A stretch of DNA of 52,444 nucleotides, taken from positions 1 through 52,444 of IMG/VR virus record IMGVR_UViG_3300036860_000446, one strand, 5' to 3'. Below, in pieces: positions 3 through 52,444 of the stretch. Origin of the DNA: a virus (lineage: Duplodnaviria > Caudoviricetes). The notes below the pieces were generated by a model. The model saw nothing but the letters and a program-made list of their open reading frames with translations, had not been told where the DNA came from and did no database searches. Position numbers and translations under genes: made by a program. Within the stretch, counting starts at the first letter, position 1; each line of letters opens with the position of its first letter.

Positions 3-665
3 GAGGAGTTCGTCATCTGCGGCCATTGTCGCGACAGAGAAGACAGAATTGCCGTCATCATGATAGTTGCCGCTTGGAGCCAAAATGGGGCGATCGCCGG
101 CGGCCTGGATAGCGGTTGGAGAGGCGGCGATCCGATCAACACCATCGGCTGGAGCGATCAGCTTGCCGATATTGAGGCGAAGACTTCCACCGCCGGTGTG
201 GCGAGTCATGACATGTACATGGGCCTGTTCGAAGGTCAACGATTTTGGGGCGCGAAAAACGGCGCGGGCTCGTCCGGGGGAAATAGCACCGGGGAGCCAG
301 ATGGCAATGGTGCCTCGGTGGGTGTGGCCCGGTTCGGCACCGCTGGAAACGCCACCACCAACAAAACTGACGCCGGTCCCGGCCGTAATGGCGGTATCGG
401 AGAAGTCACATTGAACCGTTGATTGGTCTGCTTTGTAAACCTTAAAACCGGTCGGGTGGTCGCCGCCGTTGGCAACGGCGTGCTTGCCGTCGTTGTTGGC
501 AGTCGTCGCGGCGGGGGTATAGGGGCCACCGCTCGAGACGACGTGACCGCCCTGTTGCAGTCGCTCCCGGGTATCGAATTTCTCTTCCCGGATTCGGTCG
601 TCCCCCTCGCCGACGTTGTCGCCGGATCCAGGGGCGCCCTCGTTCCAGATTCGAGTCGCACACAT
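3..665 (-). CDS. Tail fiber/virion protein, runs off the left edge (missing from the ORF track)
   Basis: Hand translation: MCATRIWNEGAPGSGDNVGEGDDRIREEKFDTRERLQQGG..., open to the window edge. The W-x-E-x-x-P...GDD-x-IR-x-x-K...RER start resembles phage tail-fiber anchor segments. It follows the adaptor gene. Confidence 0.65.
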   Translation of the reverse strand, partial: MCATRIWNEGAPGSGDNVGEGDDRIREEKFDTRERLQQGGHVVSSGGPYTPAATTANNDGKHAVANGGDHPTGFKVYKADQSTVQCDFSDTAITAGTGVSFVGGGVSSGAEPGHTHRGTIAIWLPGAISPGRARAVFRAPKSLTFEQAHVHVMTRHTGGGSLRLNIGKLIAPADGVDRIAASPTAIQAAGDRPILAPSGNYHDDGNSVFSVATMAADDELL

Positions 666-668
666 AAC

Positions 669-755
669 TTAAGCAACCTCTAGACGGTGCGTCTGTTCGC
701 GACCGTCAAAGAACCCAGCTGCCCACGCCAACTCAAATCGGTTAAGAGTTGCCAT
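669..755 (-). pseudogene. 28-codon LAGLIDADG homing endonuclease remnant
   Basis: MATLNRFELAWAAGFFDGREQTHRLEVA*. ELAWAAGFFDG matches the LAGLIDADG helix but the ORF stops soon after. Its ATG overlaps the upstream TAA. Confidence 0.6.
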
Positions 756-1396
756 TAGTTATCCCATGTCCTTCCGGTTGTCACGATCTGGCTTGGTGCC
801 GGTGGATCGAAGAAGAATTCAGCGATGCGGTCGATTCTCTTCGAGATCATAATATTGTACTCCATGAGGGAGGCGCTGGCCTCCTGTTTGAGGCCCATCC
901 AGCTCTGGAGACGGTAAAGGCCACCTTGGACAATGACCTCGTCCCACTCCCTTGGAAGGGAGGAAACAGTGGTGGAGGTGGAAAGCGGCAGGAGGCGCTT
1001 GAGGTAACGGAGCTGGATGATGCGAACCGTGGAGTTGGGAATCGGGAAGAAGGTGATCTCGTTCCTCCACCACAGGTAGTGAGTCGGAATATCCTGGATG
1101 GTGGTATCTCGATAGGCATCATGCTGCCTGGCGGTTATAGGAATGAGACGATGACCATCGGTCATGTTGCGAACGGAAACCGGGGCGTAGAAATCATCCG
1201 GGGCCGCAACCGTCGAAACCCCCTCTTCGGTCTGGAGGACGGCAGTTTCCTGGTTCTCGGGAATTCTGATGGCGGTCACGAGATCATCATAACTATATTG
1301 GATGGCTGTCGTCAGCTGGTTGTCGATATCGGTTCGGTTGCCCATCCTGAATTTAAGGTCGGTTTCAAGCTGGGCTCGGGTCAAAGTTCCCATCAA
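755..1396 (-). CDS. Head-tail adaptor / tail tubular A-like protein (module A)
   Basis: 213 aa. Motifs PTHYLWW..EITFFPIPN...IQLRYLK and LPREWDEVIVQGGL are typical of podovirus adaptors. Late-operon position. Confidence 0.6.
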   Translation of the reverse strand: MMGTLTRAQLETDLKFRMGNRTDIDNQLTTAIQYSYDDLVTAIRIPENQETAVLQTEEGVSTVAAPDDFYAPVSVRNMTDGHRLIPITARQHDAYRDTTIQDIPTHYLWWRNEITFFPIPNSTVRIIQLRYLKRLLPLSTSTTVSSLPREWDEVIVQGGLYRLQSWMGLKQEASASLMEYNIMISKRIDRIAEFFFDPPAPSQIVTTGRTWDN

Positions 1397-1662
1397 AGTT
1401 TATCCAGTGGATGAAGCTTGTCAACGAAGCGGCGCCAGATGAGGCGGCCGGTATAAGGATCAATCACGGTTTCGCGTTCTGGGACGGTGAAACCGGAACG
1501 GGCACAAACAACCAGCTTGCCACGCTCCAGTCCAACAGTTCCAGTATCTTGGTCCTCGTCGGCAGGGAGGCCGGCATCTGGGGCTGCGTCGATCAGGAAG
1601 CCGGTGTCAGCTCCAGGCTCGGTTGTGTCCCACCAAATGCGAACGGTCTTAGTGAAGGGCAT
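1393..1662 (-). CDS. Hypothetical virion-region protein
   Basis: 89 aa, abuts both neighbours in the minus-strand operon. Confidence 0.6.
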   Translation of the reverse strand: MPFTKTVRIWWDTTEPGADTGFLIDAAPDAGLPADEDQDTGTVGLERGKLVVCARSGFTVPERETVIDPYTGRLIWRRFVDKLHPLDKL

Positions 1663-4317
1663 TTAACCTCCACAGGCGTTACCGACGCCATTTCCATTGG
1701 AGTCGTATTGACTCGGATTGAAAGTACGTTTGCAGTTATCGTGCAAGTCTATAACACCATCACCGTCGGAGTCGGCGTTGCTGACACCGTTAGCAACATC
1801 AGCGGGTTGTTCTCCATCAAAGGTCAGAACCGGCCAAACAGTCGTGAAGATTGATCGATTGAAACGGAAGGCTCGCGATCCGATCGCGCTACCGGCGGGC
1901 TGCGCCCCAGCAGTCAGCAATGGCGACCCAGCTGCGAGGTTGTAATTCGGTCGAGTAGCGCTAAGACGATTGATATACCCGAGTGCAGGAGATCGTGTCA
2001 GAATGCCTGAATCGGTGCAATTAGTCCCCGCTGCGCCGCCACTTTCAGCTGTAACGGCAGTTAAAAGTGAGTACACATTGTCAAAATCTTCGACTGGACC
2101 GGCATCCGGTGTACAAGCCGAATAGGTATCGTTAGAATTGAACCCAGATACGAGATCACGGATTGTTCCAGTCATTACGGTGTCTGGATATTGCGAGAAG
2201 CCGACCCCTCTGACAAATGCCCCACGACCATCACAGGTCATGTGGTCGATTGTTGCGTTATAGTTCATATTGATACCGCCGGCCCCGCCCCCACTATAGT
2301 TCGCGCCGTCGAATAAGATACAGCGCCCGGAGGTGTATGTTCCTGATGAAGTCCCACTAAGACCGACGATGAAGTTGTCCGACATGGTGACGGCTTTGGC
2401 ATTCGTATTGCCAGTACTGTTTTGGAAATATATGCCGACACGACCACAGATGTTGCTTCCTGTACAGTCTGCAGAGGATGTAATAGCAGTTTCGGCGCCG
2501 ATAAAGAAGTTACCCTTGGCCACAATCGGATTCAGTGAGGCTCCGCCCAACTCGAGTGTTTGGGCGAGCCCGAAGTTCTTTACTAAGTTTCCATACCAAT
2601 TACCAGTGAATAGGGCTCCCCCTTTAATGTTGCTAATGTAATTATGAGTAAATCCTGTACCTTGATATGACGAGTTTGGGTCGGTTGGATAGAACGTACC
2701 GGTTAGACCAGCACCAGAATTAACGATCCAATTATCATATACAGCGGCCCCGACCCCGGCAGCATTTAAGGATGCCCCCGAGGTACCGCCCAGATTATAG
2801 AGATCATAGGCAGTATTCAGACTGATATCTCCACCAAACAACGCGTCTCCCTGGAGATAAAAGCATTCCGAGTTGGAAATACATCCCTCAAAGAATAGGT
2901 TACGCTGTATTTTATTATTGATTGCAGGCAGAGCCGCTCCTTCATTAGGATGTAAATTGACGCCTTGATTACGATAAAAGGTAGAATCTACAACCTGTAC
3001 ACCATCGGAACTGACTCCGTTGAATTGTGGGAAGGCCAGTGTCGCGTTCGTATTTGTCTGTGTTGCTTGGCCAGCAACGGTTGTCACATCATGAAAAGCA
3101 CTCCAACGAACCTTGAAGTTTCTTACGCCTCTGTACATCCAACCGTCAACTGGCCCTTTGTAATCATGAAAATTGATGTAAGCGAGATCAGTAACTTTCG
3201 TTGATCCGGAGAAGGCATTGACCTCAACTCCATTAGATCCGTTAACTGTCGGACTGCCGGTGTTAGCAACATTAACAGCCTGAAAAACGGGCATTGGAGA
3301 GTTGCCAACACCAAGGTCTCCTTCGATTCGATATCCGTTAGATCCAGCCGATTGAAAAAGAGCGGCATCATAGACGATGGCGATCGAATCGCCGACGGCA
3401 GGAAGCGCGGCTATACAGAAGCCTGTGCTGGCACCGGTACAGCATGGGTAGGGGGTGAGAGCGGCGGTGCATTCGGAGTTGCCGTAGGCTGCTGGCTCGT
3501 TGTGTTGACTGACCGGACGGACTGGACAGGTTGCACCGGCGTTGGCGCCTGTACAGCAAGCAACCGGGGCGCCAGCACCGGTACAGTAGAAAGCACGGTT
3601 CGCGTGCGGCGTCAGCCGCTGTCCACCAGTAGTATCAGATCCACTAGTTGCATCAGCCGTATCGGTACAAACTGCGAAGGTTGAAGCACCAACCAGTCTA
3701 ATCTCGTATGATCGGTTTCGGGCCTTACCAGATTGAAAGACGACTCGACCGGTTTTCTTGGCCGAGTCAATTCCGACGGCTGGAGTAATCGTGAACTTTC
3801 TACCAACAGTACCAGCAGCGGCGCAGTCGGTGTCAGCATCTGCATCGACAAAGGCGGCAATCGTCGTTTCGACGACCGTGCCTTGGATATCGAGAAGGCC
3901 ACCATTTTGTATCTTCAGGAGTCTGGCTGTCGCCGTCGTGTTGAAACCGAGTCGATGACCAGCCCGCATACGGAGAATACCAGTCGAGTTTATCGTTAGG
4001 TCTCCGGTAATGGTCAGCGTTCGATAGCCGTTAGCATCTCGACCTGTTGAGGCCTCGTCATAGATGAGACTGCCATCAATGGTCGTGGCTCCGCATGCCT
4101 TGGCATCGGTTGTCAGAATGACGGTGTGGGTTGCACCAATCGAGCAGGTGTCGGTTGAAAGTGGAACGACCCCTCCACAGGAGGTCCACGATCCAGCAGT
4201 GTTCCAGTCACATGGAGTCGTTGCACATGCAGCTACGGTTGCGCAGGCATTAGCCATCGCGAGACGAGGTAGAAACACCAGTGATATAATACCAGCCCAC
4301 TTCAGGAACCGCTTCAT
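1663..4317 (-). CDS. Large signal-peptide protein with Cys-rich repeats, parallel beta-helix and a C-terminal thrombospondin type-3 repeat
   Basis: 884 aa. N-terminus MKRFLKWAGIISLVFLPRLAMA. Repeats CTGAGAPVACCTGANAGATC and CTAALTPYPCCTGASTGFC. Asn/Gly-rich beta-helix-like middle, YNLAAGSPLLTAG, C-terminal DSDGDGVIDLHDNC...NPSQYDSNGNGVGNAC. Confidence 0.75.
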   Translation of the reverse strand: MKRFLKWAGIISLVFLPRLAMANACATVAACATTPCDWNTAGSWTSCGGVVPLSTDTCSIGATHTVILTTDAKACGATTIDGSLIYDEASTGRDANGYRTLTITGDLTINSTGILRMRAGHRLGFNTTATARLLKIQNGGLLDIQGTVVETTIAAFVDADADTDCAAAGTVGRKFTITPAVGIDSAKKTGRVVFQSGKARNRSYEIRLVGASTFAVCTDTADATSGSDTTGGQRLTPHANRAFYCTGAGAPVACCTGANAGATCPVRPVSQHNEPAAYGNSECTAALTPYPCCTGASTGFCIAALPAVGDSIAIVYDAALFQSAGSNGYRIEGDLGVGNSPMPVFQAVNVANTGSPTVNGSNGVEVNAFSGSTKVTDLAYINFHDYKGPVDGWMYRGVRNFKVRWSAFHDVTTVAGQATQTNTNATLAFPQFNGVSSDGVQVVDSTFYRNQGVNLHPNEGAALPAINNKIQRNLFFEGCISNSECFYLQGDALFGGDISLNTAYDLYNLGGTSGASLNAAGVGAAVYDNWIVNSGAGLTGTFYPTDPNSSYQGTGFTHNYISNIKGGALFTGNWYGNLVKNFGLAQTLELGGASLNPIVAKGNFFIGAETAITSSADCTGSNICGRVGIYFQNSTGNTNAKAVTMSDNFIVGLSGTSSGTYTSGRCILFDGANYSGGGAGGINMNYNATIDHMTCDGRGAFVRGVGFSQYPDTVMTGTIRDLVSGFNSNDTYSACTPDAGPVEDFDNVYSLLTAVTAESGGAAGTNCTDSGILTRSPALGYINRLSATRPNYNLAAGSPLLTAGAQPAGSAIGSRAFRFNRSIFTTVWPVLTFDGEQPADVANGVSNADSDGDGVIDLHDNCKRTFNPSQYDSNGNGVGNACGG

Positions 4318-4556
4318 AGATCCCTCGGGCCGGCTGCGTCTCGGATTCTTATTTTTCCAGTCGATTGATCTTTGCAGATGGCGCCGAACCGAAAGGCACT
4401 TACATCTGCTGGACAGTCCGGCACAATAAAACTGCCGGCGATCTCTTCATCAGATGGAGAAATCTCACCGGTATCTGATCGCCTGAAGCCGGTCGAACCC
4501 CACCAGGCAGCCAGAAGAAGTGGAACGAAAACAAGTATGGGCCAACGTCGTCTCAC
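4314..4556 (-). CDS. Small protein with N-terminal signal/TM segment
   Basis: MRRRWPILVFVPLLLAAWWG; 4-nt overlaps with both neighbours. Confidence 0.6.
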   Translation of the reverse strand: MRRRWPILVFVPLLLAAWWGSTGFRRSDTGEISPSDEEIAGSFIVPDCPADVSAFRFGAICKDQSTGKIRIRDAAGPRDL

Positions 4557-4876
4557 TCAAAGACCTCTACCTCGACAGTGTCGGCCCCGACACCGTCCAT
4601 GAGCATATAAAGAGTGTGGGCGGAGTTTGGGCCTTCTATGTCTCGAACAGCCCCGGCGGGGACGACAAAGTAACGGCCGGCTTCGATCTCTCCAGAATAC
4701 CAGGCACAACGAACAGCACCAGTTACGGGACGAATAGAAATCTGCCCCCATGGAAGGATCCGCCAAGGGGTACCGGTCGTGGGAACGGCAGTGAAATCGA
4801 CGGTTATAACGGCCCCGGCGTTACCGTTGACCGAGATCCTTTGAGCATGTCCAGGACCTTTAAGAATCGCGCCCAT
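4553..4876 (-). CDS. Hypothetical virion protein
   Basis: 107 aa, beta-rich, AGGAG RBS. Confidence 0.6.
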   Translation of the reverse strand: MGAILKGPGHAQRISVNGNAGAVITVDFTAVPTTGTPWRILPWGQISIRPVTGAVRCAWYSGEIEAGRYFVVPAGAVRDIEGPNSAHTLYMLMDGVGADTVEVEVFE

Positions 4877-4885
4877 GCAGGCTCC

Positions 4886-5314
4886 TTAATCGAAGGCTTC
4901 ATCGGTTACGGTTGGCGTTGCGTTGGCTGCGGCAACGTGGTCCTTAACCCAGAAGGTTAGGACAACAGCGACGTCGGCTGAGGTACCACCGCCGGTGATG
5001 TTGATCTGGTCGCCTTTGGCGCATTCACGGGAGCCGGCAGTTGTCAGAGTGTCGGCGCTGGTTACGTTGACGGTGTCAGCGGTCAGGGAGGCAGCAGAGA
5101 GCCAGGTGACAGCAGTCGTACCGTTGGCAACCGTCAAGGTTCCGGCAGTTGATGTTCGGGCGAAACGGCTGATCTCCTGGAGGCGGCCAGCATAGGGCAT
5201 CTTGAACTTAAAGGTGGAGGCGTTGGTCGGTAGATACGCAACGATGGTGTCGTATGAACCTGCCGACGGACCACGTTCAGAGGTTCTCTGGAGGTGACGG
5301 TCGAGGTAGGCCAC
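4886..5314 (-). CDS. Putative minor capsid/decoration protein
   Basis: 142 aa, Thr/Ala-rich beta-sandwich-like, downstream of the MCP. Confidence 0.55.
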   Translation of the reverse strand: MAYLDRHLQRTSERGPSAGSYDTIVAYLPTNASTFKFKMPYAGRLQEISRFARTSTAGTLTVANGTTAVTWLSAASLTADTVNVTSADTLTTAGSRECAKGDQINITGGGTSADVAVVLTFWVKDHVAAANATPTVTDEAFD

Positions 5315-5317
5315 TGG

Positions 5318-5917: not shown

Positions 5918-5930
5918 TGTCTTACCTCTG

Positions 5931-5983: not shown

Positions 5984-5991
5984 GGGTTGGG

Positions 5992-6891
5992 TTACGGAGG
6001 ATTGCTGCCATCAATACCGCGCCACGTTCCGAAGCGAGATTCCATGCAACGGAAGTAGACTTTGTGCTTGGAGTCGCCGGTGTCGAAGTCGTCGCCGCTG
6101 GTGAACTCCGGCTTGTCGCGCCAGAAGAACTGAACGTCGTGGCCGCCCTTGGCAATCAGGAACCAGACCTTGGTACCGGTCAGGAAGTGCCAGACCTGGA
6201 AGCCGAACGCACCCTTGAGAACGTTGATCGTGTTCTCATTGGTGTAGGGAAGGGTCGGAGCCTTGAGGATCTCCTCGGCCGTGTATTGTAATTCCGTAGG
6301 AATTACAAGCTTGGCTGGATATAGCGGAGTGTTGAAGCCGCGCTCAGAAACGGTCTTCTCCATGCGGATCTTCGCGGCCTGCAAAGCAGCAATAGAAAGG
6401 ACGGCGTCCGGGGAGGGGCGGTTCGCGTAGGTACCGCCGCCCAGGAGGGCGTGGGCGGTCGAGCACAGGGCTTCACCGGCGGTGAAGCCGACGAAGCTGG
6501 TCGAGAAGGCGTTGTTGAATCCGGCTGCCTGGAGGATGTTGACCGTCTGATTGACGGAGCGGTTAAGGTGGATCGTCATCCGCTTAAGCTGGCCGTAGCG
6601 CTCGTCCCTAACGGCTTCCTTGGTGGCACGGAAGGCAAGCCCGTAGGCGGTCGGGTCGTAGCGAACAGTCGTGCCGGGGATCGTGTCGTCGTAGGTGACG
6701 GCTTCCCCTTCTGGCTTCTGGGGGACAAGGCCGAAGAAGGCCATTTTGTAGTCCGTCAGGTAGGGCTCGTTCATCGTGTCTACCTTGACGAACTGAGGAC
6801 CCTCCTGTTGGAACATGGCGTCCTCGTCGTTATAAATTGTCCGCAGGCCGGGGTCGAGGAGCCTTGCCTGGGAAAGCCGGGTGGTAGTCAT
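5992..6891 (-). CDS. Major capsid protein A (Mu gpT-like, HK97 fold)
   Basis: 299 aa. LLDPGLR, GLVPQKPEGEAVTYD, YGLAFRATKEA, LCSTAH, PAKLVIP, WFL...DFDTGD...WRGIDGS. Order portal-scaffold-MCP. Confidence 0.85.
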   Translation of the reverse strand: MTTTRLSQARLLDPGLRTIYNDEDAMFQQEGPQFVKVDTMNEPYLTDYKMAFFGLVPQKPEGEAVTYDDTIPGTTVRYDPTAYGLAFRATKEAVRDERYGQLKRMTIHLNRSVNQTVNILQAAGFNNAFSTSFVGFTAGEALCSTAHALLGGGTYANRPSPDAVLSIAALQAAKIRMEKTVSERGFNTPLYPAKLVIPTELQYTAEEILKAPTLPYTNENTINVLKGAFGFQVWHFLTGTKVWFLIAKGGHDVQFFWRDKPEFTSGDDFDTGDSKHKVYFRCMESRFGTWRGIDGSNPP

Positions 6892-7948: not shown

Positions 7949-7962
7949 ACGAGTCTCCATGG

Positions 7963-8206: not shown

Positions 8207-8639
8207 GTTTTGTTATGTAGGCCAACAGTCGTTCAATCCTGGTTGGCGATTCTTTGAGCAGCCCAAGCGCCTGATTGCAGGCACTACAAAGAAGTCCTCT
8301 GGTCTTACCAGTTCTGTGATTATGGTCCACATGAAAACCGGATTTACCGCTTCCGTTGAATTTGGTTGGAGGCCCAAAACAGGCGGCGCAAACACCTCCT
8401 TGGGCTTCAACCAGTCGTTCATAATCTTCGATCGACATCCCATAGTTTTTCCTGTACCACCATTTTCTAGCGGACAGGCGCGGGCCCTCCGGGTGCTTGG
8501 CCCGGTGCTCCCTGATTCGCTTGAGGATTTTGTCCCTGTTCCTGTTGTAATACGCCTTGTCCGCCTTGCGAGCCGGCTCCAATCGATCCGAGCGCTTGAA
8601 TACCTTGCGCGAGCTGCGCGCCTTGAGCTCCGATCTCAT
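8178..8639 (-). CDS. Endonuclease VII-family (HNH-type) nuclease
   Basis: YGMSIEDYERL...QGGVCAAC...FHVDHNHRTGKTRGLLCSACNQALG; GGAGG RBS 9 nt upstream. Confidence 0.9.
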   Translation of the reverse strand: MRSELKARSSRKVFKRSDRLEPARKADKAYYNRNRDKILKRIREHRAKHPEGPRLSARKWWYRKNYGMSIEDYERLVEAQGGVCAACFGPPTKFNGSGKSGFHVDHNHRTGKTRGLLCSACNQALGLLKESPTRIERLLAYITKHEPILSQRT

Positions 8640-10404
8640 TGTAGATGTCCTCCAGTTGGGGGATTAACTCGTCTTTGTGTCGGTTCTCGAACGAAACCAG
8701 AATGTCGGAAAGCATGACCTCAGCGCCCTTCCCCAACTTGGCGATGAGCTCGAGGAGGGGCGGGGAAATCGGGCCCATTTGCTGGACGGTGAAACCGAGC
8801 TGGGCGGCCTGTTGAGCGAAGTTGGTCCAGAGCTGGTAGAGGGAAACGGCGTCCTGGCGTTGGATCTGGCGGTTGACGGCGGCGCTGGATGGGAGAACCT
8901 CAACGGAAACGGCCTTGTGAAGGGGGACGTCTCGGGGGAAGTTGATCCGAAGGCGTTCCATGGCGACGCCGTCCGGACCTAGAACCTCTTGGATGAGGCC
9001 ATCCGGGTTCATCTGGTCGATCATGCTGGCGATCATGAGGCCGGCTTCGCCAAGGGCGTCACGCATGTCGCGGACCTGGAAGTCGAACTTCTTGTTGCCC
9101 TCCTGGATGATGGCTAAGGTGCCGGTCGCCGTTCCACGGCGACTGGCTGAGGGCTCCCGGCCAACGCTGAAGTCGGAAACTCCGGTGCGGCGCTCCGCCA
9201 TGGCGTGGGCGTTCTGCTCGAGGGCGAGGGCCTGTACCTTGAAGTCGCCCATGGGCATGGGCATGACGTCGGTGTCCTGGAGGGCAGGGATGCGTTTGCC
9301 GCTATAGAGGTCTTCCATAGCGTCCCAGCTTGGGGTACCAGGGCGAACTTTGAACATGCTCAGGTTGGAGTAGTTGGCAGCGTCGATCAACTGGTTGTGG
9401 ATCGTGTTGACTTCCTCGTTGATGTCACCGATTTGGTCAGCGACTCCAAGACCAGCGATCTGGTGCTCGATAACCTCTAGGCGGCCGATAACGAAGGGAC
9501 GGCGACGGTGGAAGAATGGAATGGCGTTGCAGCGGAGAACGGTGCCACCCTCTGGCTCGATCTCGAGCTGGATCTCTTCCTCGACACCGTCATCGTTGAT
9601 GTCGTAGCGAGCCCAGAGCTCATGGGTGGTAATCATCTCGGAAGAGCGCGGGAGAAGGCCGGCGGTTTCGTCACGGGCCTGCTCGACACGCTCAAATGGG
9701 ATGCGGGCGCCTGTTAACGCTTCCTCGAGATTGAAGATTTCCTTGGATTTGGCGCGCTTGACCAGCTGGCCCGGGGTGAACGGGCGTATGTGACAGATCC
9801 ATGGGGCGGTTTGGATGTCGGTTGAACCGTCGGCCCACACGAAGTATTCTGGCTGGATGGATTCAACATGGGGCCGATCCTCGACGAGGATCTCGTCTTC
9901 AACGATGTCGAATTTCTCGTCGTAGTGGAGTTCGACGCCACGGCGGCGAAGCCAGGAGAGTTTGAGGATTCCAAGACCAAGCTTGACGGCGTCGTAGCTG
10001 AAGTCTCGGATGGCGCGGTAGACGGGGAACTGTTCGGTGCGCCCCCAGTCCAGGTATTCGGTGAATTGTTCGGCGAAGTCCTGGTAGTCGGGATGGCGAT
10101 GCTGGACTTTCCAGAGGGGGTCTTGCCCGAACAGGGAAGTCATGAAGCGGGCGTGGATCGCGGCGCTGTGGGTCGGGACCATGGGAACATTAACGTTGGA
10201 GGCGTTCTTGGTCGGGAAGTTCTTCGGGTCGCGCCGACCCTCATGGAGCTTGATGGCACGCTCCCAGCGGGCCTCGAGGTCGCGCCGGTTGGCCTTGGCC
10301 TTTTTGACCTCGGTGGAGAAGTGGGCCACGACCCGGGTCTCCTGCTCCTTGGTCAGCGGGAACTGCTTGTAGAGGTCCTCAGCGGTCTTCTTGGATTTGG
10401 CCAC
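8467..10404 (-). CDS. Portal protein A
   Basis: 645 aa after TerL. LGLGILKLSW, RRPFVIGR...AGLGVADQI, ERRTGVSDFSVG...TATG. Confidence 0.85.
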   Translation of the reverse strand: MAKSKKTAEDLYKQFPLTKEQETRVVAHFSTEVKKAKANRRDLEARWERAIKLHEGRRDPKNFPTKNASNVNVPMVPTHSAAIHARFMTSLFGQDPLWKVQHRHPDYQDFAEQFTEYLDWGRTEQFPVYRAIRDFSYDAVKLGLGILKLSWLRRRGVELHYDEKFDIVEDEILVEDRPHVESIQPEYFVWADGSTDIQTAPWICHIRPFTPGQLVKRAKSKEIFNLEEALTGARIPFERVEQARDETAGLLPRSSEMITTHELWARYDINDDGVEEEIQLEIEPEGGTVLRCNAIPFFHRRRPFVIGRLEVIEHQIAGLGVADQIGDINEEVNTIHNQLIDAANYSNLSMFKVRPGTPSWDAMEDLYSGKRIPALQDTDVMPMPMGDFKVQALALEQNAHAMAERRTGVSDFSVGREPSASRRGTATGTLAIIQEGNKKFDFQVRDMRDALGEAGLMIASMIDQMNPDGLIQEVLGPDGVAMERLRINFPRDVPLHKAVSVEVLPSSAAVNRQIQRQDAVSLYQLWTNFAQQAAQLGFTVQQMGPISPPLLELIAKLGKGAEVMLSDILVSFENRHKDELIPQLEDIYNEIGAQGAQLAQGIQALGSIGAGSQGGQGVLQQEQGQNPQANQGAPGQAPGGPAPVR

Positions 10405-11035: not shown

Positions 11036-11053
11036 CCCCAGGTACGTCCCAAC
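11036..11053 (+). repeat. Conserved motif, copy 1 (CCCCAGGTACGTCCCAAC)
   Basis: The 17-mer recurs exactly at 15139 and 22645, and inverted with 1 mismatch at 16713-16730. Confidence 0.85.
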
Positions 11054-12627
11054 TAGTACCCCGTCAGCGGGTTCATCCCAGCCTTCAAGGCTGCATTATA
11101 CCACTCATCCGCCGACTTTGGCTTGAAGGCGCGGGATCCGCTGAAAATCCAAACCTGTTGACTGAGCGCGTAGGCGTCGAGGAGGTCGCGGGGGCTGGTC
11201 TTGTCCGGGAACCATGTGTACTCATCAATGAAGTCTACCATATTTCGCCTGATGAAAGCTCGGCCGGAGGCGAAAGTTTCGCCAACGACCTGGTTGATGC
11301 GGGATTCCTTGGCGCCGGTCGAATTGGAGCCGGAGATCGGGACGACGGGCAGGTAGTCACCCTTGGACTTGCCGTACCATTCCAGGGGTTTCTGGAGGAG
11401 GCGGCTGAAGGCGACGGCCTCGATGTTGATTTGAGGGGGGCGGCGCTGCTTCCACACTTTGTAGACGTCCATGAGGCACTCGAACGGGTCTTTGCGGAGG
11501 GCGATGGCATCGCGGACGAAGATGCGTCCCTGAGCATCAGTTGAGGTCACGACGATGGCGGTCCGGTCGGCGCGGTTTCCGGGAGTCGCGGCTGGGTCGA
11601 CGACCATGTAGGAGAAGAGCTCCTCCGTTCGGATCATCTCGCCGTCCTCGAGGATCAGGACCTCCTTTCCCTCCGCGTCGATTCCTTCCTCGTAATAACG
11701 GAGCCAGCTGCTGTGGAAGGCGGCGGAGTCGGAATCGCGTGGATCGTTCATGTACTGGCAAGCAAACTTGTAGGGGCCGAGCTTGATGCGGAGGCGGGCG
11801 AGCTCGTCGGTGGGGAACCGCTCGGGCCACAGACTGTTTCCATCGGGAAGAATCGCGGTTCGATCCGGCCCCACCTTACATTCCGGTTCATGCTCCCGGA
11901 TCCACCCGTTCAGGTCGATCCTGCCCCATCTGTTACCGACGGTATCGATCCAATCCCGCTCCGGAACCTCGAGAAGCGGGAAGGCGTATTGGTGCCAGCT
12001 GATGCGGCGGGGGACCTCAACGGTGGACTCGGCACAGGTTTCATCGATGAGGTCATCCTCGATGATCCCGGTGAAGTGACGACCAGTAACTTTGGTGCCG
12101 ACGCCGATTGCGGTAATGTTGGGCTCGGAGCCGGGGGCGTTGCCGAGGCGCATCTCGGATTGGTTCCAGAGTGCCTTGTGCATATCCTCCGGGATCGTTT
12201 CCGGGAACAGCCAGCGCAGGAGGACGTTCCCCTCGAAGTGGTGCTCGATCTCGCCCAGATGGATGGCAGCAACGTCGCCGCCGCTCATGACGAGCAGCAT
12301 TCGCTCGAGCGGGCCCCAGAAACGCGGCGGATCTGGCTCCTGGATCAGACGCCAGGTCGGCTTTCCTCTAGAATAAACTGTACTCTTTAAATGTCCCCGA
12401 GGATGTTCACCCAGCCTTCGACGGATCGTCGGGTCCTGGGCGAACCTGCACATCCTGAGATGGAAGTCGCGGGTCAGGTCCTGATACCCCAGGACCGCCT
12501 TGTTCAGAAAGTAGAGCGACTTCCTGCATTTCAACCTCAGGTTGTGCCGGATCAGGTCCGGATCCAACTTCAACTGTTGGCCGAGCTTTTTCGCAAACTT
12601 CAAAGTCTGTATCGATGGTTGTGTCAT
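11053..12627 (-). CDS. terL: Terminase large subunit A
   Basis: Walker A PRGHLKST, Walker B GRHFTGIIEDD, GNRW coupling motif, CQYMNDP, nuclease VVDPA ... DLLDA. Start could be 12669. Confidence 0.92.
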   Translation of the reverse strand: MTQPSIQTLKFAKKLGQQLKLDPDLIRHNLRLKCRKSLYFLNKAVLGYQDLTRDFHLRMCRFAQDPTIRRRLGEHPRGHLKSTVYSRGKPTWRLIQEPDPPRFWGPLERMLLVMSGGDVAAIHLGEIEHHFEGNVLLRWLFPETIPEDMHKALWNQSEMRLGNAPGSEPNITAIGVGTKVTGRHFTGIIEDDLIDETCAESTVEVPRRISWHQYAFPLLEVPERDWIDTVGNRWGRIDLNGWIREHEPECKVGPDRTAILPDGNSLWPERFPTDELARLRIKLGPYKFACQYMNDPRDSDSAAFHSSWLRYYEEGIDAEGKEVLILEDGEMIRTEELFSYMVVDPAATPGNRADRTAIVVTSTDAQGRIFVRDAIALRKDPFECLMDVYKVWKQRRPPQINIEAVAFSRLLQKPLEWYGKSKGDYLPVVPISGSNSTGAKESRINQVVGETFASGRAFIRRNMVDFIDEYTWFPDKTSPRDLLDAYALSQQVWIFSGSRAFKPKSADEWYNAALKAGMNPLTGY

Positions 12628-12922
12628 CTTCCTCCGAAATGGCCTGGAGGATACGTAGCGTCTTATCATCCAGGGTGATCTTCTTCGCCACCGCGATCTT
12701 CGTTACTGGTGTGAAGCCGCTACGGTCCAACCATTCCTTGATCATCCACGCCTTGACGCGCTCCTGGGTTGGTCCCGTGATCAGGTTCAGCTGCTCCCGC
12801 AGCGCCAGCGGGACTCCCTTTTGCAGGAGCTCATTGATATCCTCGGTCGACATCTGCGGCAGTTTCTCGGTTCCGATCAGCTCGAGGAGCTCCTGAAGCA
12901 GATTGTCGTTAGGTTTCGACAT
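12407..12922 (-). CDS. Putative terminase small subunit A
   Basis: Immediately upstream of TerL; helical, WLDRSGFTPVTK motif, disordered tail overlapping terL; GAGGGAG RBS. Confidence 0.5.
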   Translation of the reverse strand: MSKPNDNLLQELLELIGTEKLPQMSTEDINELLQKGVPLALREQLNLITGPTQERVKAWMIKEWLDRSGFTPVTKIAVAKKITLDDKTLRILQAISEEDDTTIDTDFEVCEKARPTVEVGSGPDPAQPEVEMQEVALLSEQGGPGVSGPDPRLPSQDVQVRPGPDDPSKAG

Positions 12923-13061
12923 CCAACGCTCCCTCGTCGATGAGGATCTGGACTGCGGCGCGGGCAGCAGAGAGCGCCATCCTATCATCAACATCAACGG
13001 TGTTCTCCAGGATCGTATCCTGGACCGTTTGGATCAGGTCGACCAGATCCGCATAGGTCAT
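12909..13061 (-). CDS. 50-aa acidic microprotein
   Basis: MTYADLVDLIQTVQDTILENTVDVDDRMALSAARAAVQILIDEGALDVET; GGAGGGG RBS. Confidence 0.6.
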   Translation of the reverse strand: MTYADLVDLIQTVQDTILENTVDVDDRMALSAARAAVQILIDEGALDVET

Positions 13062-13073: not shown

Positions 13074-14969
13074 CTACTGGCGTTCATCACAGCCGATGTC
13101 CCACGCGCTTCCTTGCTGCGCCTCACAATCATTATAGAACAAATCCACCCCGTTGCAAATGTCCGCTGTTCTCCCGGATGGCATCCCGGTAGCCGTACCA
13201 GCATTGCGGGCATTGCTGACCGCCTTGAGGTGGAAATCTCCCGTCGAGATGTTGACGAATCCCGGGGCTGCGCACTTGTTGTTGTCGTTGCCTGTACCAT
13301 CGTTGTCTACATCAGCGCTTGTTATCGTCTGCGCGCACGTCTTGTTAGCTCCATTGAACGCAATCAGAGTTCCGCTCGTAGCGGACTTAACGATGTTATT
13401 CTGGAACACTCCAGACGAAGTCCAAGCCACTAGTTGTTGACTTCCATCTGAATAAAGTATATTGTTTCGGAATATATTCCCGGTGACAACTGAACCGGCT
13501 CCAAAGCGTTGTTCAATAGCCTTGATGCCGTCGGGAACATAGAACGTGTTATTGTAAATCTTATTGTCCCTGACCTTGCAGAGAGAACTAGCAGCTGTCT
13601 CCACAATGAGCCCGCTATCTCCAGGATTATCGCAGAGATTGTTGTAGATTTGTATGTTGTCGCCGAGCGATCCCAATCCAGAGTCGAGTGTATGGTCGTA
13701 TTTGATGCACCCAGCATTTACATCCCTGAAGACATTATTCCGAACGATCCAGCCCCAGGATTTCTCTATGACGATTCCCTGGCCAGGGTGCGCCCCTGGA
13801 TTGTTGGTCCGCTCGATCAAGTTCCCGCTGACAACGCTTCCGGTACTGTCTCCGTGCAGGACGCCACCGTTGACCTCATAGGCAAGGATCATGCCCGAAG
13901 AAGTTCCGCTGCTACCCGGGCCCATGACCGTCGGATCGCCTAAGTCGTGGATCCAGTTATCGGTGATCGTAACTACCAGCGGTGTTCCTGTAGGTCCAGC
14001 GGTCGTGTGGATGCCCTCGCTCCCGGTATAGGCGATCTCGCTGTTCTTGATCGTGACAGGCGTTGCCTGACCGCCGTTCAATACCACCCAGCCAACCCCA
14101 TAGTCGCTCCCAGAATTGAACTTATCAGCATTATATAGAATCGTCGCGCCGTCGATGACGATGTTCGTTGCCGAACTCAACAACTGAATCGCTGCTCTGC
14201 GATGGCAGCGAAACGTCACACCCCTGATCGTGATCCAGGAACTCGTGCCCAGTTCAAAGCCAACGCCGTTGTTGTTTGTGAAGACGTAAGGGCGCGAGTT
14301 GGATGCGCCACCTGGAGCGTCGGCTCCAGTTCCCCAATAGACGAATATATTCGTGCCCGTTGTCTGCGCGCTGTAGCTCTCCCACTGGGCGGTGATGCCA
14401 GCGAGCCCGATCTCGCGCCGTGTCATCTGGCCATCCGGCCGCTGCGCCCCAATCGCCAAATCGGAGAAGCTGGACCCGGCAACGTACCAGACGACGTTGC
14501 AGGCTATGGAGCTCGGTAGTCCGTTACATGGTGCGTTGCAGGAGCCAGCCGTACCGGAGCATTGGGTCCAGGCGCCAAGATCCTCGGTCCCGTCGATATA
14601 GACAGGCTCCCCAGATCCGCGCGTTCCAGTGAAGCCGTTGTTCTGGATGATGATGGGGTGGCTACTCGCGCCGTTCTTGCCCGTGATCGAGAACCTGTCG
14701 CCGAAATAGCGGCCTTCGGTATTGCCGGGACAGTTGTCGTGAGTGGAGTGGACTCCGCGAATGTTGAGCACGTCATCCTGAGCAGAGAGCAGCCCGATAC
14801 CGTCTGCCAGTAGCTTCTTCGGGTTGTTTGTCGTCGGGCTGGAGAGGCAGGAGGCGGAACTCCCGTTGCCAGCAGTCGGACAGGTCGCATCGACGTAGTA
14901 GGTCGCTGCCCACACCTGTCCACCCAGCACCAACCCCAGCAACACCCCAACCAGCCGCAGTCGCTTCAT
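13074..14969 (-). CDS. Signal-peptide right-handed beta-helix (pectin lyase-like) protein
   Basis: MKRLRLVGVLLGLVLGGQVWA/ATYYVD; repeats IVRNNVF, IYNNLC, IYNNTF, FRNNIL; C-terminal GDFHLKAVSNARNAG...AWDIGCDE. Confidence 0.8.
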   Translation of the reverse strand: MKRLRLVGVLLGLVLGGQVWAATYYVDATCPTAGNGSSASCLSSPTTNNPKKLLADGIGLLSAQDDVLNIRGVHSTHDNCPGNTEGRYFGDRFSITGKNGASSHPIIIQNNGFTGTRGSGEPVYIDGTEDLGAWTQCSGTAGSCNAPCNGLPSSIACNVVWYVAGSSFSDLAIGAQRPDGQMTRREIGLAGITAQWESYSAQTTGTNIFVYWGTGADAPGGASNSRPYVFTNNNGVGFELGTSSWITIRGVTFRCHRRAAIQLLSSATNIVIDGATILYNADKFNSGSDYGVGWVVLNGGQATPVTIKNSEIAYTGSEGIHTTAGPTGTPLVVTITDNWIHDLGDPTVMGPGSSGTSSGMILAYEVNGGVLHGDSTGSVVSGNLIERTNNPGAHPGQGIVIEKSWGWIVRNNVFRDVNAGCIKYDHTLDSGLGSLGDNIQIYNNLCDNPGDSGLIVETAASSLCKVRDNKIYNNTFYVPDGIKAIEQRFGAGSVVTGNIFRNNILYSDGSQQLVAWTSSGVFQNNIVKSATSGTLIAFNGANKTCAQTITSADVDNDGTGNDNNKCAAPGFVNISTGDFHLKAVSNARNAGTATGMPSGRTADICNGVDLFYNDCEAQQGSAWDIGCDERQ

Positions 14970-15080
14970 TTCTACCCCGCCAGCCTCCAAACGTCAACCC
15001 CCGAAGACCACCGACCCAGCCGGAGGCTTGCCGAGCCGGTGGCGCTACCCCACGACGGAGTAGCTTCGGGGAGGGATCTA

Positions 15081-15137: not shown

Positions 15138-15155
15138 CCCCAGGTACGTCCCAAC
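15138..15155 (+). repeat. Conserved motif, copy 2
   Basis: CCCCAGGTACGTCCCAAC, 27 nt upstream of the -35 box. Confidence 0.85.
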
Positions 15156-16712: not shown

Positions 16713-16730
16713 GTTGGGACGTACGTGGGG
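16713..16730 (-). repeat. Conserved motif, copy 3 (inverted, 1 mismatch)
   Basis: Reverse complement CCCCACGTACGTCCCAAC; can also pair with GTCCCAACCA at 16680-16689. Confidence 0.75.
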
Positions 16731-21431: not shown

Positions 21432-21531
21432 GCTCGGGTTGGGGTTTTAGCTCTTGAAGTGGAGGCCGGGGGTTGCGGTGGAGGACCCCCGGCTTAGTGC
21501 TCTCATTCTAACTGGTGAAGGAGGAACGAAT

Positions 21532-22644: not shown

Positions 22645-22661
22645 CCCAGGTACGTCCCAAC
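22645..22661 (+). repeat. Conserved motif, copy 4
   Basis: CCCAGGTACGTCCCAAC between the amidoligase and GATase genes. Confidence 0.85.
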
Positions 22662-27720: not shown

Positions 27721-27739
27721 ATATAAAGGAGGTGCTAAG

Positions 27740-27976: not shown

Positions 27977-28123
27977 CGGCCTGGTTGGTGTTCGCGGCGT
28001 CGCTGGCATGGTGGTGTACAGGTCGGTGTAGCATAGATAAGACCTAGCCGTACTTTTTGACCCCCCACCCCCGGTGGGCGGGGAACGGGTTGAGGTTAAC
28101 GATCGTCAAAATGGGGAACTGCG

Positions 28124-30515: not shown

Positions 30516-30543
30516 GGTGGGTGCCGCCCTGGAGGCGGGGGAG

Positions 30544-40284: not shown

Positions 40285-41208
40285 ATGGCCATCACACGGA
40301 TGGGGACCGGGACCACCAATCTCGGTCCCAACCTGCTCACGACCTACTTGAATCGCAGGTTCGTGAGCGTCCTGCGCGCTTCGCTCGTCGCGGCCGCGCT
40401 GGGCATGCCGTCCGACATGGGCGCGAACGACGGGACCACGGTCCGCTGGCAGTTCTTCAGCCAGCCGGCCGCCGTCACGACAACCCTGACGGAAGGCTCC
40501 GACCCGACGAACTCGGCGGACTTCACCACGACCACGGTGACCGGGACGCTCGGGGAGTACGGCAGCTACACCGACGTGTCGAAGTTCCTGCTCCGGACCG
40601 GGCTGACCGGGACGAAGCAGGAGATGGTGGACGGTCTGGCCTACATGGCGGCCATCTCCATCGACACGCTCTCGATCGGCGAGATCGATGGATCGACAAC
40701 CTCCGTCGATTCGGGAACGGCACTCACGGCGGAATCGGTCCGGCAGGCGGTCGCGGCCTTGCTCGACAACAACTGCAAGCCGCACCGCAAGACTCCCGGC
40801 CTATTCCCGCTCCTAGTCACCACGGACGCCGCCTACGACATGATGGGCGAGGGCGCACCGACGTGGTTCCAGGCGAAGTCCGATCTGTACCAGCAGTCTC
40901 TCCAGCAGCCGTTCCAGAACACGCCCGCGTCGGCAACGCTCTACGGGGCGACCGTCCGGACGACCAACAATGTTCAGGTGGATACGGCCCCCACGCCGGA
41001 TGACGAGCTGGGGGTGCTGGTGGCCGATGATTCGTTCGGCATCGCGTCTCTCGACACCGACGTGATGCAGCCCGAGATCATCATCACGAACCCCGAAGAG
41101 AACGTCGGGGCTCCGCTGCGCAACCGCGGGACGATGGGCTGGTGGGTTCTTTTTGTGGCCAAGCTCTTCGCGAATGCGAGGGTCGTTGTAGTCAAGGCCG
41201 ATATTTGA
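40285..41208 (+). CDS. Major capsid protein B (N4-gp56-like)
   Basis: GTTVRW, LTEGSDP, GTLGEYGSYTDVS, AAISIDTL, PLRNRGTMGW. Confidence 0.85.
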   Translation: MAITRMGTGTTNLGPNLLTTYLNRRFVSVLRASLVAAALGMPSDMGANDGTTVRWQFFSQPAAVTTTLTEGSDPTNSADFTTTTVTGTLGEYGSYTDVSKFLLRTGLTGTKQEMVDGLAYMAAISIDTLSIGEIDGSTTSVDSGTALTAESVRQAVAALLDNNCKPHRKTPGLFPLLVTTDAAYDMMGEGAPTWFQAKSDLYQQSLQQPFQNTPASATLYGATVRTTNNVQVDTAPTPDDELGVLVADDSFGIASLDTDVMQPEIIITNPEENVGAPLRNRGTMGWWVLFVAKLFANARVVVVKADI

Positions 41209-43276: not shown

Positions 43277-43277
43277 T

Positions 43278-44333: not shown

Positions 44334-44336
44334 ACC

Positions 44337-51083: not shown

Positions 51084-51091
51084 GAGGCTGA

Positions 51092-51781
51092 ATGGCCATC
51101 ATACAGAGCGGCGCGACTACTGACCTTCTGACCGTCGATCCAAACACCAAGGCGGCGCATGTGACGGCACGCCCAGTCGATCCGACTACTCTGGGGCACT
51201 ATCGCTTCTCAGTCGTTACTGGAACACTCGCCGCTGCACTTGCTGCCAATGCTATCGTATTCAGTTGCAGGTGGGGCAATGCCGCGAACCTGGCGCTTGT
51301 GACCAAGTTCCGCACTCGCTTCCTGCCGCTGACCCCATTTACGGCCGCAACGCTCACGGATCACACTTCATTCGATGCCGTTGTTGGCACATCATTCTCA
51401 GTGGCTCATACTGGTGGAACTGCTCTGACACTAACTGGCACAGCCTTGAAGATGCGCCAGAATATGGGTGCCACGCTATTCAGTGACATCCGCATTGCCA
51501 CAACCGCTGCGCTTGGCGGCGGCACAATCACCCTGACAGCCCACCCATTCTCGCAATCGATCCGCAAGGGTAATCGAGTCAATCCTGCGGCTGCCACTGA
51601 GGAAGTTATCATGCCTGCAATAGATGGACTCAATAGTGACTTCGATGTAGCGAGCGGTGAGTATCCACTTGTCTTGTCGCAGGATACAGGGATTGTAGTC
51701 CGAAATAGGACTGTTTGGCCAGCCGCCGGAACTGGCATCCTGCTTGTTGAAATGGTTTGGGCAGAGGTTGCATCCTACTAA
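51092..51781 (+). CDS. Tail-region structural protein
   Basis: 229 aa; AGGAGG RBS; YPLVLSQDTGIVVRN...WAEVASY. Confidence 0.65.
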   Translation: MAIIQSGATTDLLTVDPNTKAAHVTARPVDPTTLGHYRFSVVTGTLAAALAANAIVFSCRWGNAANLALVTKFRTRFLPLTPFTAATLTDHTSFDAVVGTSFSVAHTGGTALTLTGTALKMRQNMGATLFSDIRIATTAALGGGTITLTAHPFSQSIRKGNRVNPAAATEEVIMPAIDGLNSDFDVASGEYPLVLSQDTGIVVRNRTVWPAAGTGILLVEMVWAEVASY

Positions 51782-51791
51782 GGAGACTAAT

Positions 51792-52067
51792 ATGGCGAAA
51801 GCATTTGTGATGTTTTATAACGGTAACGTGCAGAATACCGACCCATTAACTATGACGATCTCGTTTCGCATGACACTTGGAGGACCAGACACTCCCACCA
51901 ATCCAGCTGTGGACTCAATAGAAGTTACGGCTGTCGATATACCGTTAAATGCCACACCGGCCCGGATAGCCAGAGCAGTTGTGGATCGCGCCATTGAGAG
52001 AGCACTTGACTTTAGCGTAACGCTAGACGATTCAGACGTAATATTCCAAGGGTTTGAGAGAGGCTAA
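51792..52067 (+). CDS. Hypothetical tail-region protein
   Basis: 91 aa from MAKAFVM; AAGGAG RBS. Confidence 0.6.
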   Translation: MAKAFVMFYNGNVQNTDPLTMTISFRMTLGGPDTPTNPAVDSIEVTAVDIPLNATPARIARAVVDRAIERALDFSVTLDDSDVIFQGFERG

Positions 52068-52444
52068 TGCCCAAAGCCGTGATGATGGAAGTCTACAGTC
52101 ACAACGCCGATCCTGCCGATTCAACGCAGGTTCAGGCGCTCGTCACGTTCCGCATACTCGGCGCGCCAAGCGATCTTGGCACGATAGATAGCACGGTCAC
52201 GATCATCAGCACCGACACCCCTGCCACCATCACCACGAAGATCCAGAACGCCGTCATCGCCCGCGCCGCAGAGTATGGTGTGGCTCTGGTTGACTCCGAT
52301 CTCATTCCAGTAACCTATGGCGTACCGCAGTCGCTCATGTCTCCCGCCAACTCCTCCACCCTGACCATGCTGGACGACGGTGTGGACCAGAGCATCACCG
52401 GCTCGCTCGGCAACCTGAAAATCTACCCGGCGTCCGTCAATCCG
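52067..52444 (+). CDS. Tail-region protein, runs off the right edge (not in the ORF track)
   Basis: MPKAVMMEVYSHNADP..., open to the end; similar to the 51792 product and to part of the 49194 product. Confidence 0.65.
   Translation, partial: MPKAVMMEVYSHNADPADSTQVQALVTFRILGAPSDLGTIDSTVTIISTDTPATITTKIQNAVIARAAEYGVALVDSDLIPVTYGVPQSLMSPANSSTLTMLDDGVDQSITGSLGNLKIYPASVNP

Follow-up and report, generated by a model that had tools for sequence, protein, structure and literature searches.

A public viral record with two virion-assembly modules is very probably a chimera of two different soil phages

The record IMGVR_UViG_3300036860_000446 is a linear IMG/VR metagenome record of 52,444 nt, which was analysed over its full length and is referred to here as the window. 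It carries two sets of terminase, portal and capsid genes, and the question it raises is whether a single phage can hold, and use, both. The initial annotation listed a genome with two capsid systems, a natural hybrid, tandem prophages and a chimeric contig as possible readings, and only the last of these, which we adopt here, fits the evidence. Its description of two virion-assembly modules was correct in that both TerL/portal/capsid sets are real, but they do not belong to one genome. The window is very probably a chimeric contig in which two different soil phages, A and B, were falsely joined by the assembler, most likely at a short sequence shared by both. Since the record is then an in-silico chimera, it represents an assembly artefact and there is no two-capsid phage to explain. 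This reading is carried by direct observation of a break in the assembly graph, of the behaviour of sequencing depth, of the left half without the right half, and of the synteny of relatives. The window is an incomplete piece of phage A followed by an incomplete piece of phage B, with one virion module per phage, each truncated by a contig end.

Phage A, a podovirus-like phage of roughly 53–56 kb with an SU10-type portal and adaptor, occupies the window from position 1 to about 29.3 kb:

1–29316: phage A fragment, about half of a genome of roughly 53–56 kb
1–15 kb, minus strand: head and neck genes
755–1396, minus strand: SU10-type head-tail adaptor (Pfam SU10_adaptor, PF24175, 60.6 bits, cut-off 27)
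5992–6891, minus strand: major capsid protein (Phage_capsid_4, 2.1e-12; Mu-like_gpT, 5.7e-05)
8467–10404, minus strand: portal (phrog_1216, 2e-42; Pfam SU10_portal, PF23899, 142.7 bits)
11053–12669, minus strand: TerL (phrog_38, 8.8e-60)
13074–14990, minus strand: beta-helix protein of 638 aa (Pfam Beta_helix, 1.5e-12)
15–29.2 kb, plus strand: early or recombination genes
28124–29197, plus strand: COOH-NH2 ligase-type gene (phrog_3815, 8.6e-16; Pfam COOH-NH2_lig, 24.6 bits, just below the cut-off of 25)

The match to Mu-like_gpT, alongside that to Phage_capsid_4, bears out the earlier description of the left capsid protein as Mu gpT-like. The 638-aa reading frame had been taken for the small terminase subunit, TerS; Pfam makes it a right-handed beta-helix (1.5e-12), so that it is not TerS, and its product is tailspike- or depolymerase-like. 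A TerS-like gene on the left may instead correspond to the ORF at 12407–12997, which has a weak PHROG match (6e-4). An 884-aa ORF (1663–4317) received no usable annotation from Pfam, PHROGs or PDB sequence searches. The region at 15–29 kb, once read as a single early region serving both modules, belongs to the left set alone, and the COOH-NH2 ligase-type gene is the final A-specific gene ahead of the junction.

Phage B is unrelated to A, has relatives of about 40–43 kb, and fills the window from about 29.5 to 52.4 kb, where it is truncated at the right end:

30554–52444, plus strand: phage B fragment, with RusA, small genes, TerL, portal, capsid and downstream virion genes
30502–30990, plus strand: RusA Holliday-junction resolvase, B version (Pfam RusA, 6.4e-21)
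34070–35863, plus strand: TerL (phrog_38, 4.7e-34)
37282–39162, plus strand: portal (Pfam SU10_portal, 54.7 bits)
40285–41208, plus strand: major capsid protein (phrog_1357, 6.5e-23)

The other right-hand virion proteins gave no usable annotation in Pfam, PHROGs or PDB sequence searches, and the names ‘TerS’, ‘adaptor’, ‘spikes’, ‘nozzle’ and ‘N4-gp56-like’ given to genes of this half found no support there or in a tblastn comparison with GenBank phages. The TerL, portal and capsid proteins of B had no tblastn match at all among 50,697 GenBank phage records.

In both sets the core ORFs are intact, as first reported, and the two sets are indeed not copies of one another. A duplication was rejected: no DNA repeat linking the halves reaches 50 nt, and in BLASTP comparisons the two TerL proteins are 22% identical over 98 aa (E 0.001), while neither the portals nor the capsid proteins match significantly. 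A sigma70-like site had been described between terL and portal in both sets; one was found on the left (10 of 12 positions matching) and none on the right.

The composition of the window breaks at the join, as would be expected of a chimeric contig. GC content moves from 0.55–0.60 on the left to 0.61–0.66 on the right, GC skew falls from about +0.25 (up to +0.26) to near 0, and a Markov model of k-mers places the change-point at 29,249. Tetranucleotide profiles switch between 27.5 and 32.5 kb, with 10 of 11 left windows fitting the left profile better and all seven right windows the right; the exception is the first of these windows (1–5000), which is slightly closer to the right profile. All four copies of a 17-nt motif lie to the left of 23 kb, and there is no tandem repeat at the junction.

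The assembly graph was examined in four runs (X1–X4) as Logan contigs, so that the depths given here are contig mean k-mer depths rather than counts of raw reads. X1 and X2 come from possible source samples of the window, and their Logan assemblies are independent of the one that produced it. A fifth run, X5, matched at 0.26 of the sampled words. Two features define the junction:

29317–29483: shared sequence, an exact 167 nt common to both phages and to other genomes; most likely the point of the false join
29484–30583, plus strand: mosaic cassette of small Cys-rich ORFs and the start of RusA, of which the window has B's version

In X1 and X2 the join is absent as a single contig: one contig stops at 29346 on the left, another begins at 30554 on the right, and short nodes of higher depth lie in between. 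The 167-nt stretch forms a separate contig with a depth of 85 in X2, where its flanks stand at 30.5 and 21.3, and of 17.5 in X1. Immediately after it, position 29484 is T on the window's branch and G on an alternative branch (depth 26.6 in X2); G is also found in X3 (depth 13.5) and in X4 (on a contig of depth 2), and the allele at this position distinguishes the A and B versions. Within the cassette, an X2 contig covering 29454–30368 has a depth of 23.6, and a second shared node of 59 nt (30525–30583; depth 64.8 in X2) closes it. The phage A contig of X4 arrives at these 59 nt by way of different sequence, with a joint from 27789 to 30525 at depth 11.1. In X3, which contains almost no B, phage A sequence is linked to 29026–29535 by a 534-nt contig (depth 13.5), and the shared node is thus native to A as well; a variant in the same run joins 27730 to 29026 and bypasses most of the COOH-NH2 ligase-type gene. 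The join therefore lies within sequence that belongs to both source genomes, a repeat node of the kind at which chimeric contigs form. The initial annotation had placed the boundary at 29.2 kb, within 50–300 nt of both the change-point and this node. As a counter-point, there is a 30-nt overlap between the short Logan contigs, so that X1 and X2 both contain the path taken by the window in their k=31 graphs; the assembler behind the record, possibly drawing on read pairs, chose this path.

These data suggest how the record could have arisen. A metagenome assembler would have passed from phage A to phage B along an exact stretch common to both, namely the node at 29317–29483, inside a mosaic small-gene/RusA cassette that also shares 30525–30583. 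We infer that the crossover lies in the first of these nodes and not in the second, and that no real molecule joins A and B.

Comparison of depth across the junction, put forward in the initial annotation as a check on a single genome, revealed a step there, and the step reverses between runs. The ratio of left to right contig depth is 0.76 in X1 (9.74:12.9) and 1.43 in X2 (30.5:21.3). One molecule would give an equal ratio in both runs, so these values argue against it. The X1 ratio taken alone is weak evidence, as two contigs of phage A in that run already differ by 16% (11.3 and 9.74, with phage B at 12.9). The coverage of the two sides is thus unequal and varies independently. Phage B itself assembles in these runs as one Logan contig of 21,822 nt, from 30554 to about 52375, with a depth of 12.9 in X1 and 21.3 in X2.

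Each side is also found elsewhere without the other, which the initial annotation had likewise named as something that would refute a single genome. The left half occurs without the right on a 52,917-nt contig in X3 (depth 21.3) and a 38,488-nt contig in X4 (depth 11.1). Their identity to the window exceeds 99.9%, with 3 and 2 mismatches, respectively, and one gap each across about 8.4 kb; they depart from its sequence at 27736 and 27789 and, judged by coordinates only, reach about 25.2 kb and 9.8 kb to the left of window position 1. The binned depth of the right half is 0–3.1 in X3 and 0.4–2.5 in X4, on short contigs of which several are divergent. The exact left TerL is present on four JGI contigs of up to 53,392 nt and on Logan contigs of up to 52,917 nt. 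The exact right TerL is present on two JGI contigs, the longest being the window itself, and its 90% cluster has a member on one 21,822-nt Logan contig. None of the runs X1–X4 holds the right half without the left, which is seen separately as that 21,822-nt contig and, at the level of similarity, in relatives. Metagenome scans with the adaptor protein and with a 44-nt probe from the shared node gave no matches. Exact 40-nt probes taken from either half hit no IMG/VR contig, in a search that may have excluded the record of the window and others nearly identical to it.

A genuine recombinant of A and B deserves consideration at this point. Co-infection of one host followed by recombination at the shared cassette would leave a hybrid beside both parents in the source samples, and the contig would then be a natural inter-lineage hybrid with two packaging and capsid systems. 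The 167-nt and 59-nt stretches are exact and in the same orientation, and both phages are present in X1 and X2, which makes homologous recombination physically possible; the k-mer graphs of two runs, moreover, contain the joined path. However, the depths of the two sides differ in a manner that reverses between runs, and the node depths are explained by at least two separate genomes. Judged by the gene content of relatives, such a hybrid would carry two packaging systems and be missing A's DNA polymerase, primase and other virion genes along with the replication module of B. Only one of the two reciprocal products is represented in the window, both ends of which are contig breaks. We consider a recombinant molecule very improbable. 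Exact stretches in two unrelated, co-occurring phages do suggest recent gene exchange, and A and B probably have a common host.

Relatives of the two halves support the chimeric contig. They were found in IMG/VR through alignments, single-protein TerL scans for close relatives having found none. The left-type record G006 (55,716 nt, CheckV 100%) is collinear with the window over 15–27,263 only, through its own positions 29951–55601 and in the same gene order from adaptor to early genes, with identities of 62% for TerL, 67% for capsid, 46–47% for portal and 50% for an AAA_24 protein. DNA polymerase A, which is missing from the window, is encoded in the remaining roughly 30 kb of G006, as are virion proteins, a 2375-aa ORF and a DUF3987 primase/helicase. 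Relative to G006, the window has the extra 884-aa ORF (1663–4317) and the segment at 27.3–29.3 kb, neither matched in that record. The nearest GenBank record to the left type is MW202554.1 (‘Podoviridae sp.’, circular, 44,345 nt), with a TerL 34% identical, a single TerL locus (two CDS in its annotation) and one portal. On the right, G001 (43,206 nt), G003 (40,247 nt) and G004 (41,639 nt, CheckV 91%) match the window at 33.9–51.1 kb only, with no match at 29.3–33.9 kb. They share with it the order TerL, 133-aa gene, portal, capsid, downstream virion genes and 629-aa protein, at identities of 36–37% (TerL), 39–44% (portal), 41–45% (capsid) and 39–46% (629-aa protein). In each of them TerL and the capsid gene are present once. 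The DNA polymerase A and DUF3987 protein of G001 and the RecT of G004 have no counterpart in the window. A DNA polymerase A of their own and just one virion module are seen in relatives of either half. The capsid gene of B was matched in all five right-type records and in none of five left-type ones, and the TerL of A, used as a query on the right-type records, gave a weak match at their own TerL in two and none in three. Contigs carrying both TerL/capsid pairs, which the initial annotation had suggested looking for, did not appear among these records: right-type records have one TerL place each, left-type ones lack the B capsid gene, and X3 and X4 contain the same left phage without the right half.

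The same comparison bears on the proposal of one genome with two capsid, portal and terminase systems, whether as a phage with dimorphic virions or as a helper with a resident satellite. The intact core ORFs of both sets speak for such a genome, but the A half is found without B at >99.9% identity, none of the five left-type records has the B capsid gene, and the five right-type records show one TerL place each. Phage B was rejected as a satellite because its relatives carry their own replication or recombination genes, together with downstream virion genes. We regard a two-system genome as exceedingly unlikely. Equally improbable is the idea of two prophages lying side by side in one bacterial chromosome. 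The window does present complete-looking head modules on opposite strands with RusA between them. However, searches for an integrase, resolvase or recombinase with PF00589 (tyrosine integrase) and PF00239 (serine recombinase) gave no match in the window, with positive controls matching; no host-like gene was found among the window ORFs scanned, and no RNA gene, tRNAs included, by Rfam or ARAGORN. The reported absence of an integrase between the modules is therefore upheld, no direct repeat of at least 50 nt was found, and neither were any of the integrase, att repeat, tRNA or host genes expected at the borders of tandem prophages. Phage A, furthermore, runs on for about 25 kb leftward in X3, where G006 has phage genes, and the relatives are virus records of 40–56 kb with one module each; the unequal depths also speak against adjacent prophages.

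With the chimeric contig as the preferred reading, there is no evidence here that any phage makes two types of capsid, and the biological weight of the record is small. The point it makes concerns data quality, in that two half-genomes have been joined in a public viral record whose completeness is rated at about 94%. That rating may be a coincidence of length with left-type references (52,444/55,716 = 0.94). Records of this kind can yield false ‘dual-module’ phages and spurious gene-sharing links among viral clusters, and can also mislead the assignment of host or taxonomy. A cheap flag for such chimeras is a contig that combines two TerL/portal/capsid sets with a step in GC or GC skew.

Among known systems, virion proteins of both phages show a likeness to those of SU10, drawn from the Pfam families PF23899 and PF24175 for portal and adaptor. 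Both portals pass the SU10_portal cut-off of 30 (142.7 and 54.7 bits) and the left adaptor passes that of SU10_adaptor, a family without a match among the right-hand ORFs; a PDB sequence search gave no match for either capsid protein. As for the join, Roux et al. (2017, PeerJ 5:e3817, PMC5610896) report that, in viral-metagenome simulations, chimeric contigs made up <5% of contigs of at least 10 kb and were commoner with metaSPAdes and IDBA-UD than with MEGAHIT. The window resembles the chimeras described there in that its two phages occur together and have identical sequence in common, 167 nt and 59 nt long, at which the contig passes from one genome to the other. It differs from them in that its sources are otherwise unrelated rather than strains of one species, and what they share is confined to a small mosaic cassette.

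The window is an entire 52,444-nt virus record of IMG/VR, classed as linear with a CheckV completeness of 94%, and is therefore a contig assembled from a metagenome and not the genome of an isolate. The core of the initial annotation, that it carries two sets of TerL, portal and capsid genes, is borne out by PHROG and Pfam matches, with the left set on the minus strand and the right set on the plus strand. We call the left part of the window (1 to ~29.3 kb) phage A and the right part (~29.5–52.4 kb) phage B.

Virion genes of the two sets
755–1396, minus, SU10-type adaptor, phage A
5992–6891, minus, capsid protein, phage A (Phage_capsid_4, 2.1e-12; Mu-like_gpT, 5.7e-05)
8467–10404, minus, portal, phage A (phrog_1216, 2e-42; Pfam SU10_portal, 142.7 bits)
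11053–12669, minus, TerL, phage A (phrog_38, 8.8e-60)
34070–35863, plus, TerL, phage B (phrog_38, 4.7e-34)
37282–39162, plus, portal, phage B (SU10_portal, 54.7 bits)
40285–41208, plus, capsid protein, phage B (phrog_1357, 6.5e-23)

As had been proposed, the sets are not duplicates: the two TerL proteins share 22% identity over 98 aa, the portals and the capsid proteins give no significant BLASTP match, and no DNA repeat of at least 50 nt links the two halves of the window. Searches of the window for an integrase, resolvase, tRNA or Rfam RNA found none. Several finer labels were wrong or found no support. The ORF at 13074–14990 is a beta-helix protein and not a TerS, and no search supported the names TerS, adaptor, spikes, nozzle and N4-gp56-like given to genes of the right half; a sigma70-like site claimed between terL and portal of both sets was found in the left set and not in the right.

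Composition changes near 29 kb, from a GC content of 0.55–0.60 on the left to 0.61–0.66 on the right and from a GC skew of +0.20 to +0.26 across 16–29 kb to about zero. In phage A the skew is very strong throughout the early region, which lies on the plus strand, and much weaker over the head genes. A third-order Markov comparison, with models trained on 15.5–27 kb and 31.5–52 kb, placed the change-point at 29,249. The left tetranucleotide profile was the better fit for 10 of 11 left windows (1–5000 being the sole misfit) and the right profile for all seven right windows, with a tie at 27.5–32.5 kb.

In a protein cluster look-up, four JGI contigs of up to 53,392 nt carried the exact left TerL, and Logan contigs of up to 52,917 nt carried members of its 90% cluster. 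For the right TerL, exact matches were on two JGI contigs, the longer of them the window itself, and one cluster member was on a Logan contig of 21,822 nt. Left TerL relatives at ~60–63% identity occur on contigs of 53,840, 55,770 and 56,012 nt; the TerL of G006, an IMG/VR relative of phage A (55,716 nt, CheckV 100%), shows 62% identity. When window ORFs of at least 60 aa were compared with G006 (tblastn, E ≤1e-5), only those between 6 and 27,272 matched, collinearly, among the matches listed (at least 45 bits). Reciprocally, 24 of 167 G006 ORFs matched the window at 60 bits or more, all at 29,951–55,601 of G006 and 15–27,263 of the window. The part of G006 without a window counterpart holds a DNA polymerase A, sought in the window and absent there, a DUF3987 primase/helicase, an RNase H-like protein, a 2375-aa ORF and virion structural proteins. 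None of five left-type records carries the right capsid gene, and all five right-type records do. Three of the latter, G001, G003 and G004 (43,206, 40,247 and 41,639 nt), are matched only by window ORFs at 33.9–51.1 kb, in conserved order, and have one TerL place and one capsid gene apiece. G001 encodes a DNA polymerase A and a DUF3987 protein of its own, G004 a RecT; the G003 virion module continues past the right-hand end of its record and restarts at the beginning, the arrangement that a circularly permuted ~40-kb genome would show.

Five public soil-metagenome runs contain part of 24.3–34.2 kb. Two of these, X1 and X2, contain 0.99 of the words sampled from this interval and may be the source samples; the other three contain only 0.26–0.43. 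Logan contigs of four runs (X1–X4) were compared with the window at 19.3–39.2 kb, and no single contig of X1 or X2 spans the join. The left contig stops at 29346 (mean k-mer depth 9.74 in X1, 30.5 in X2) and the right contig, of 21,822 nt, begins at 30554 and reaches ~52,375 by coordinates (12.9 and 21.3), so that the left:right depth ratio shifts from 0.76 in X1 to 1.43 in X2. Short nodes of greater depth separate the two contigs, at 29317–29483 (17.5 in X1, 85 in X2) and 30525–30583 (64.8 in X2). The right contig ends near the right end of the window (52375–52444) in both runs, and the left contig of X1 has a computed end at ~845; the ends of the IMG contig thus roughly coincide with graph breaks rather than with genome termini.

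Phage A occurs without phage B in X3 (contig of 52,917 nt, depth 21.3) and X4 (38,488 nt, depth 11.1). Over ~8.4 kb these contigs differ from the window by three and two letters, respectively, plus one gap each; they extend, by coordinates, ~25.2 kb and ~9.8 kb past window position 1 and depart from the window at 27736 and 27789. In these runs the binned depth of the right half is only 0–3.1, and the short contigs that supply it include several divergent ones. In X3, a contig of 534 nt (depth 13.5) links 27730 to 29026–29535, and the node at 29317–29483 is therefore native to phage A too. Position 29484 is T in the window, as on the X2 branch of depth 23.6. The other X2 branch (depth 26.6) has G there, as do X3 and, on a contig of depth 2, X4. 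The X4 contig of phage A arrives at the 59-nt node 30525–30583 through ~0.8 kb of other sequence.

We conclude that the window is very probably a chimeric contig in which roughly half of phage A (1–29.3 kb) is joined to roughly half of phage B (29.5–52.4 kb). As evidence against its two-module observation, the initial annotation had named a coverage step or a lack of spanning reads near 29.2 kb, or each half as a complete genome with its own replication module; results of both kinds were obtained, the second for the right half at the level of relatives. Each phage would have its version of a mosaic cassette of small genes and RusA, parts of which are identical in the two, and the first identical part (29317–29483) would be where the IMG assembly switched from A to B. 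A real A/B recombinant formed at the shared cassette would fit the joined path, which exists in the k=31 graph of both X1 and X2, and no run with phage B alone was found; we nevertheless regard it as highly improbable. The 94% completeness equals 52,444/55,716, and its agreement in length with left-type references may be coincidental.

The cassette itself (29200–30600) consists of small ORFs rich in Cys and the beginning of RusA. Phages A and B, which co-occur in soil and are unrelated, have the stretches of 167 nt (29317–29483) and 59 nt (30525–30583) exactly in common. This suggests recent horizontal exchange and probably a shared host; from the node depth, other genomes in these soils would carry the stretches as well. 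Farther left, 27300–28100 lacks a convincing ORF. G006 ends at the equivalent of ~27.3 kb, the X3 contig ends at 27736 and the X4 contig diverges at 27789; phage A may have a hypervariable site here, or its genome may physically end here. The X3 variant linking 27730 to 29026 omits most of a COOH-NH2 ligase gene, the second of two such genes in the phage A early region.

Amidoligase/COOH-NH2 ligase-type genes and copies of a 17-nt motif
21454–22641, plus, ligase-type gene (phrog_2443, 7.9e-07)
28124–29197, plus, ligase-type gene (phrog_3815, 8.6e-16)
11037–11053, plus, motif
15139–15155, plus, motif
16713–16729, minus, motif
22645–22661, plus, motif

The motif, CCCAGGTACGTCCCAAC, has one copy with a single mismatch. 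All four copies lie in phage A, left of 23 kb, at or beside ORF ends, a count reached in none of 100 shuffles; it is absent from all 110 loci examined, G006 among them, and may be a phage-specific promoter, terminator or regulator site. Within the head/neck module of phage A, an 884-aa ORF (1663–4317, minus) of lower GC (~0.51) has no PHROG or G006 match, its sole match being a weak thrombospondin type-3/COMP calcium-binding repeat at the C-terminal end, and looks like an inserted cassette. The 2375-aa ORF of G006 (L107:11589–18716, minus) adjoins virion genes and has no Pfam or PHROG match. The phage A portal gives weak tblastn matches to those of Enterobacter phage EcP1, Vibrio phage phi50-12 and Alteromonas phage PT11-V19, which are N4-like phages, and by analogy the product of the giant G006 ORF might be a virion RNA polymerase.

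What remains of biological interest is modest: exact sequence sharing by two unrelated soil phages, and a phage B lineage whose TerL, portal and capsid proteins have no tblastn-detectable relative among 50,697 GenBank phage records. As for the contig, chimeras between coexisting viruses with highly similar regions are described as a documented failure of virome assembly (PMC5610896).
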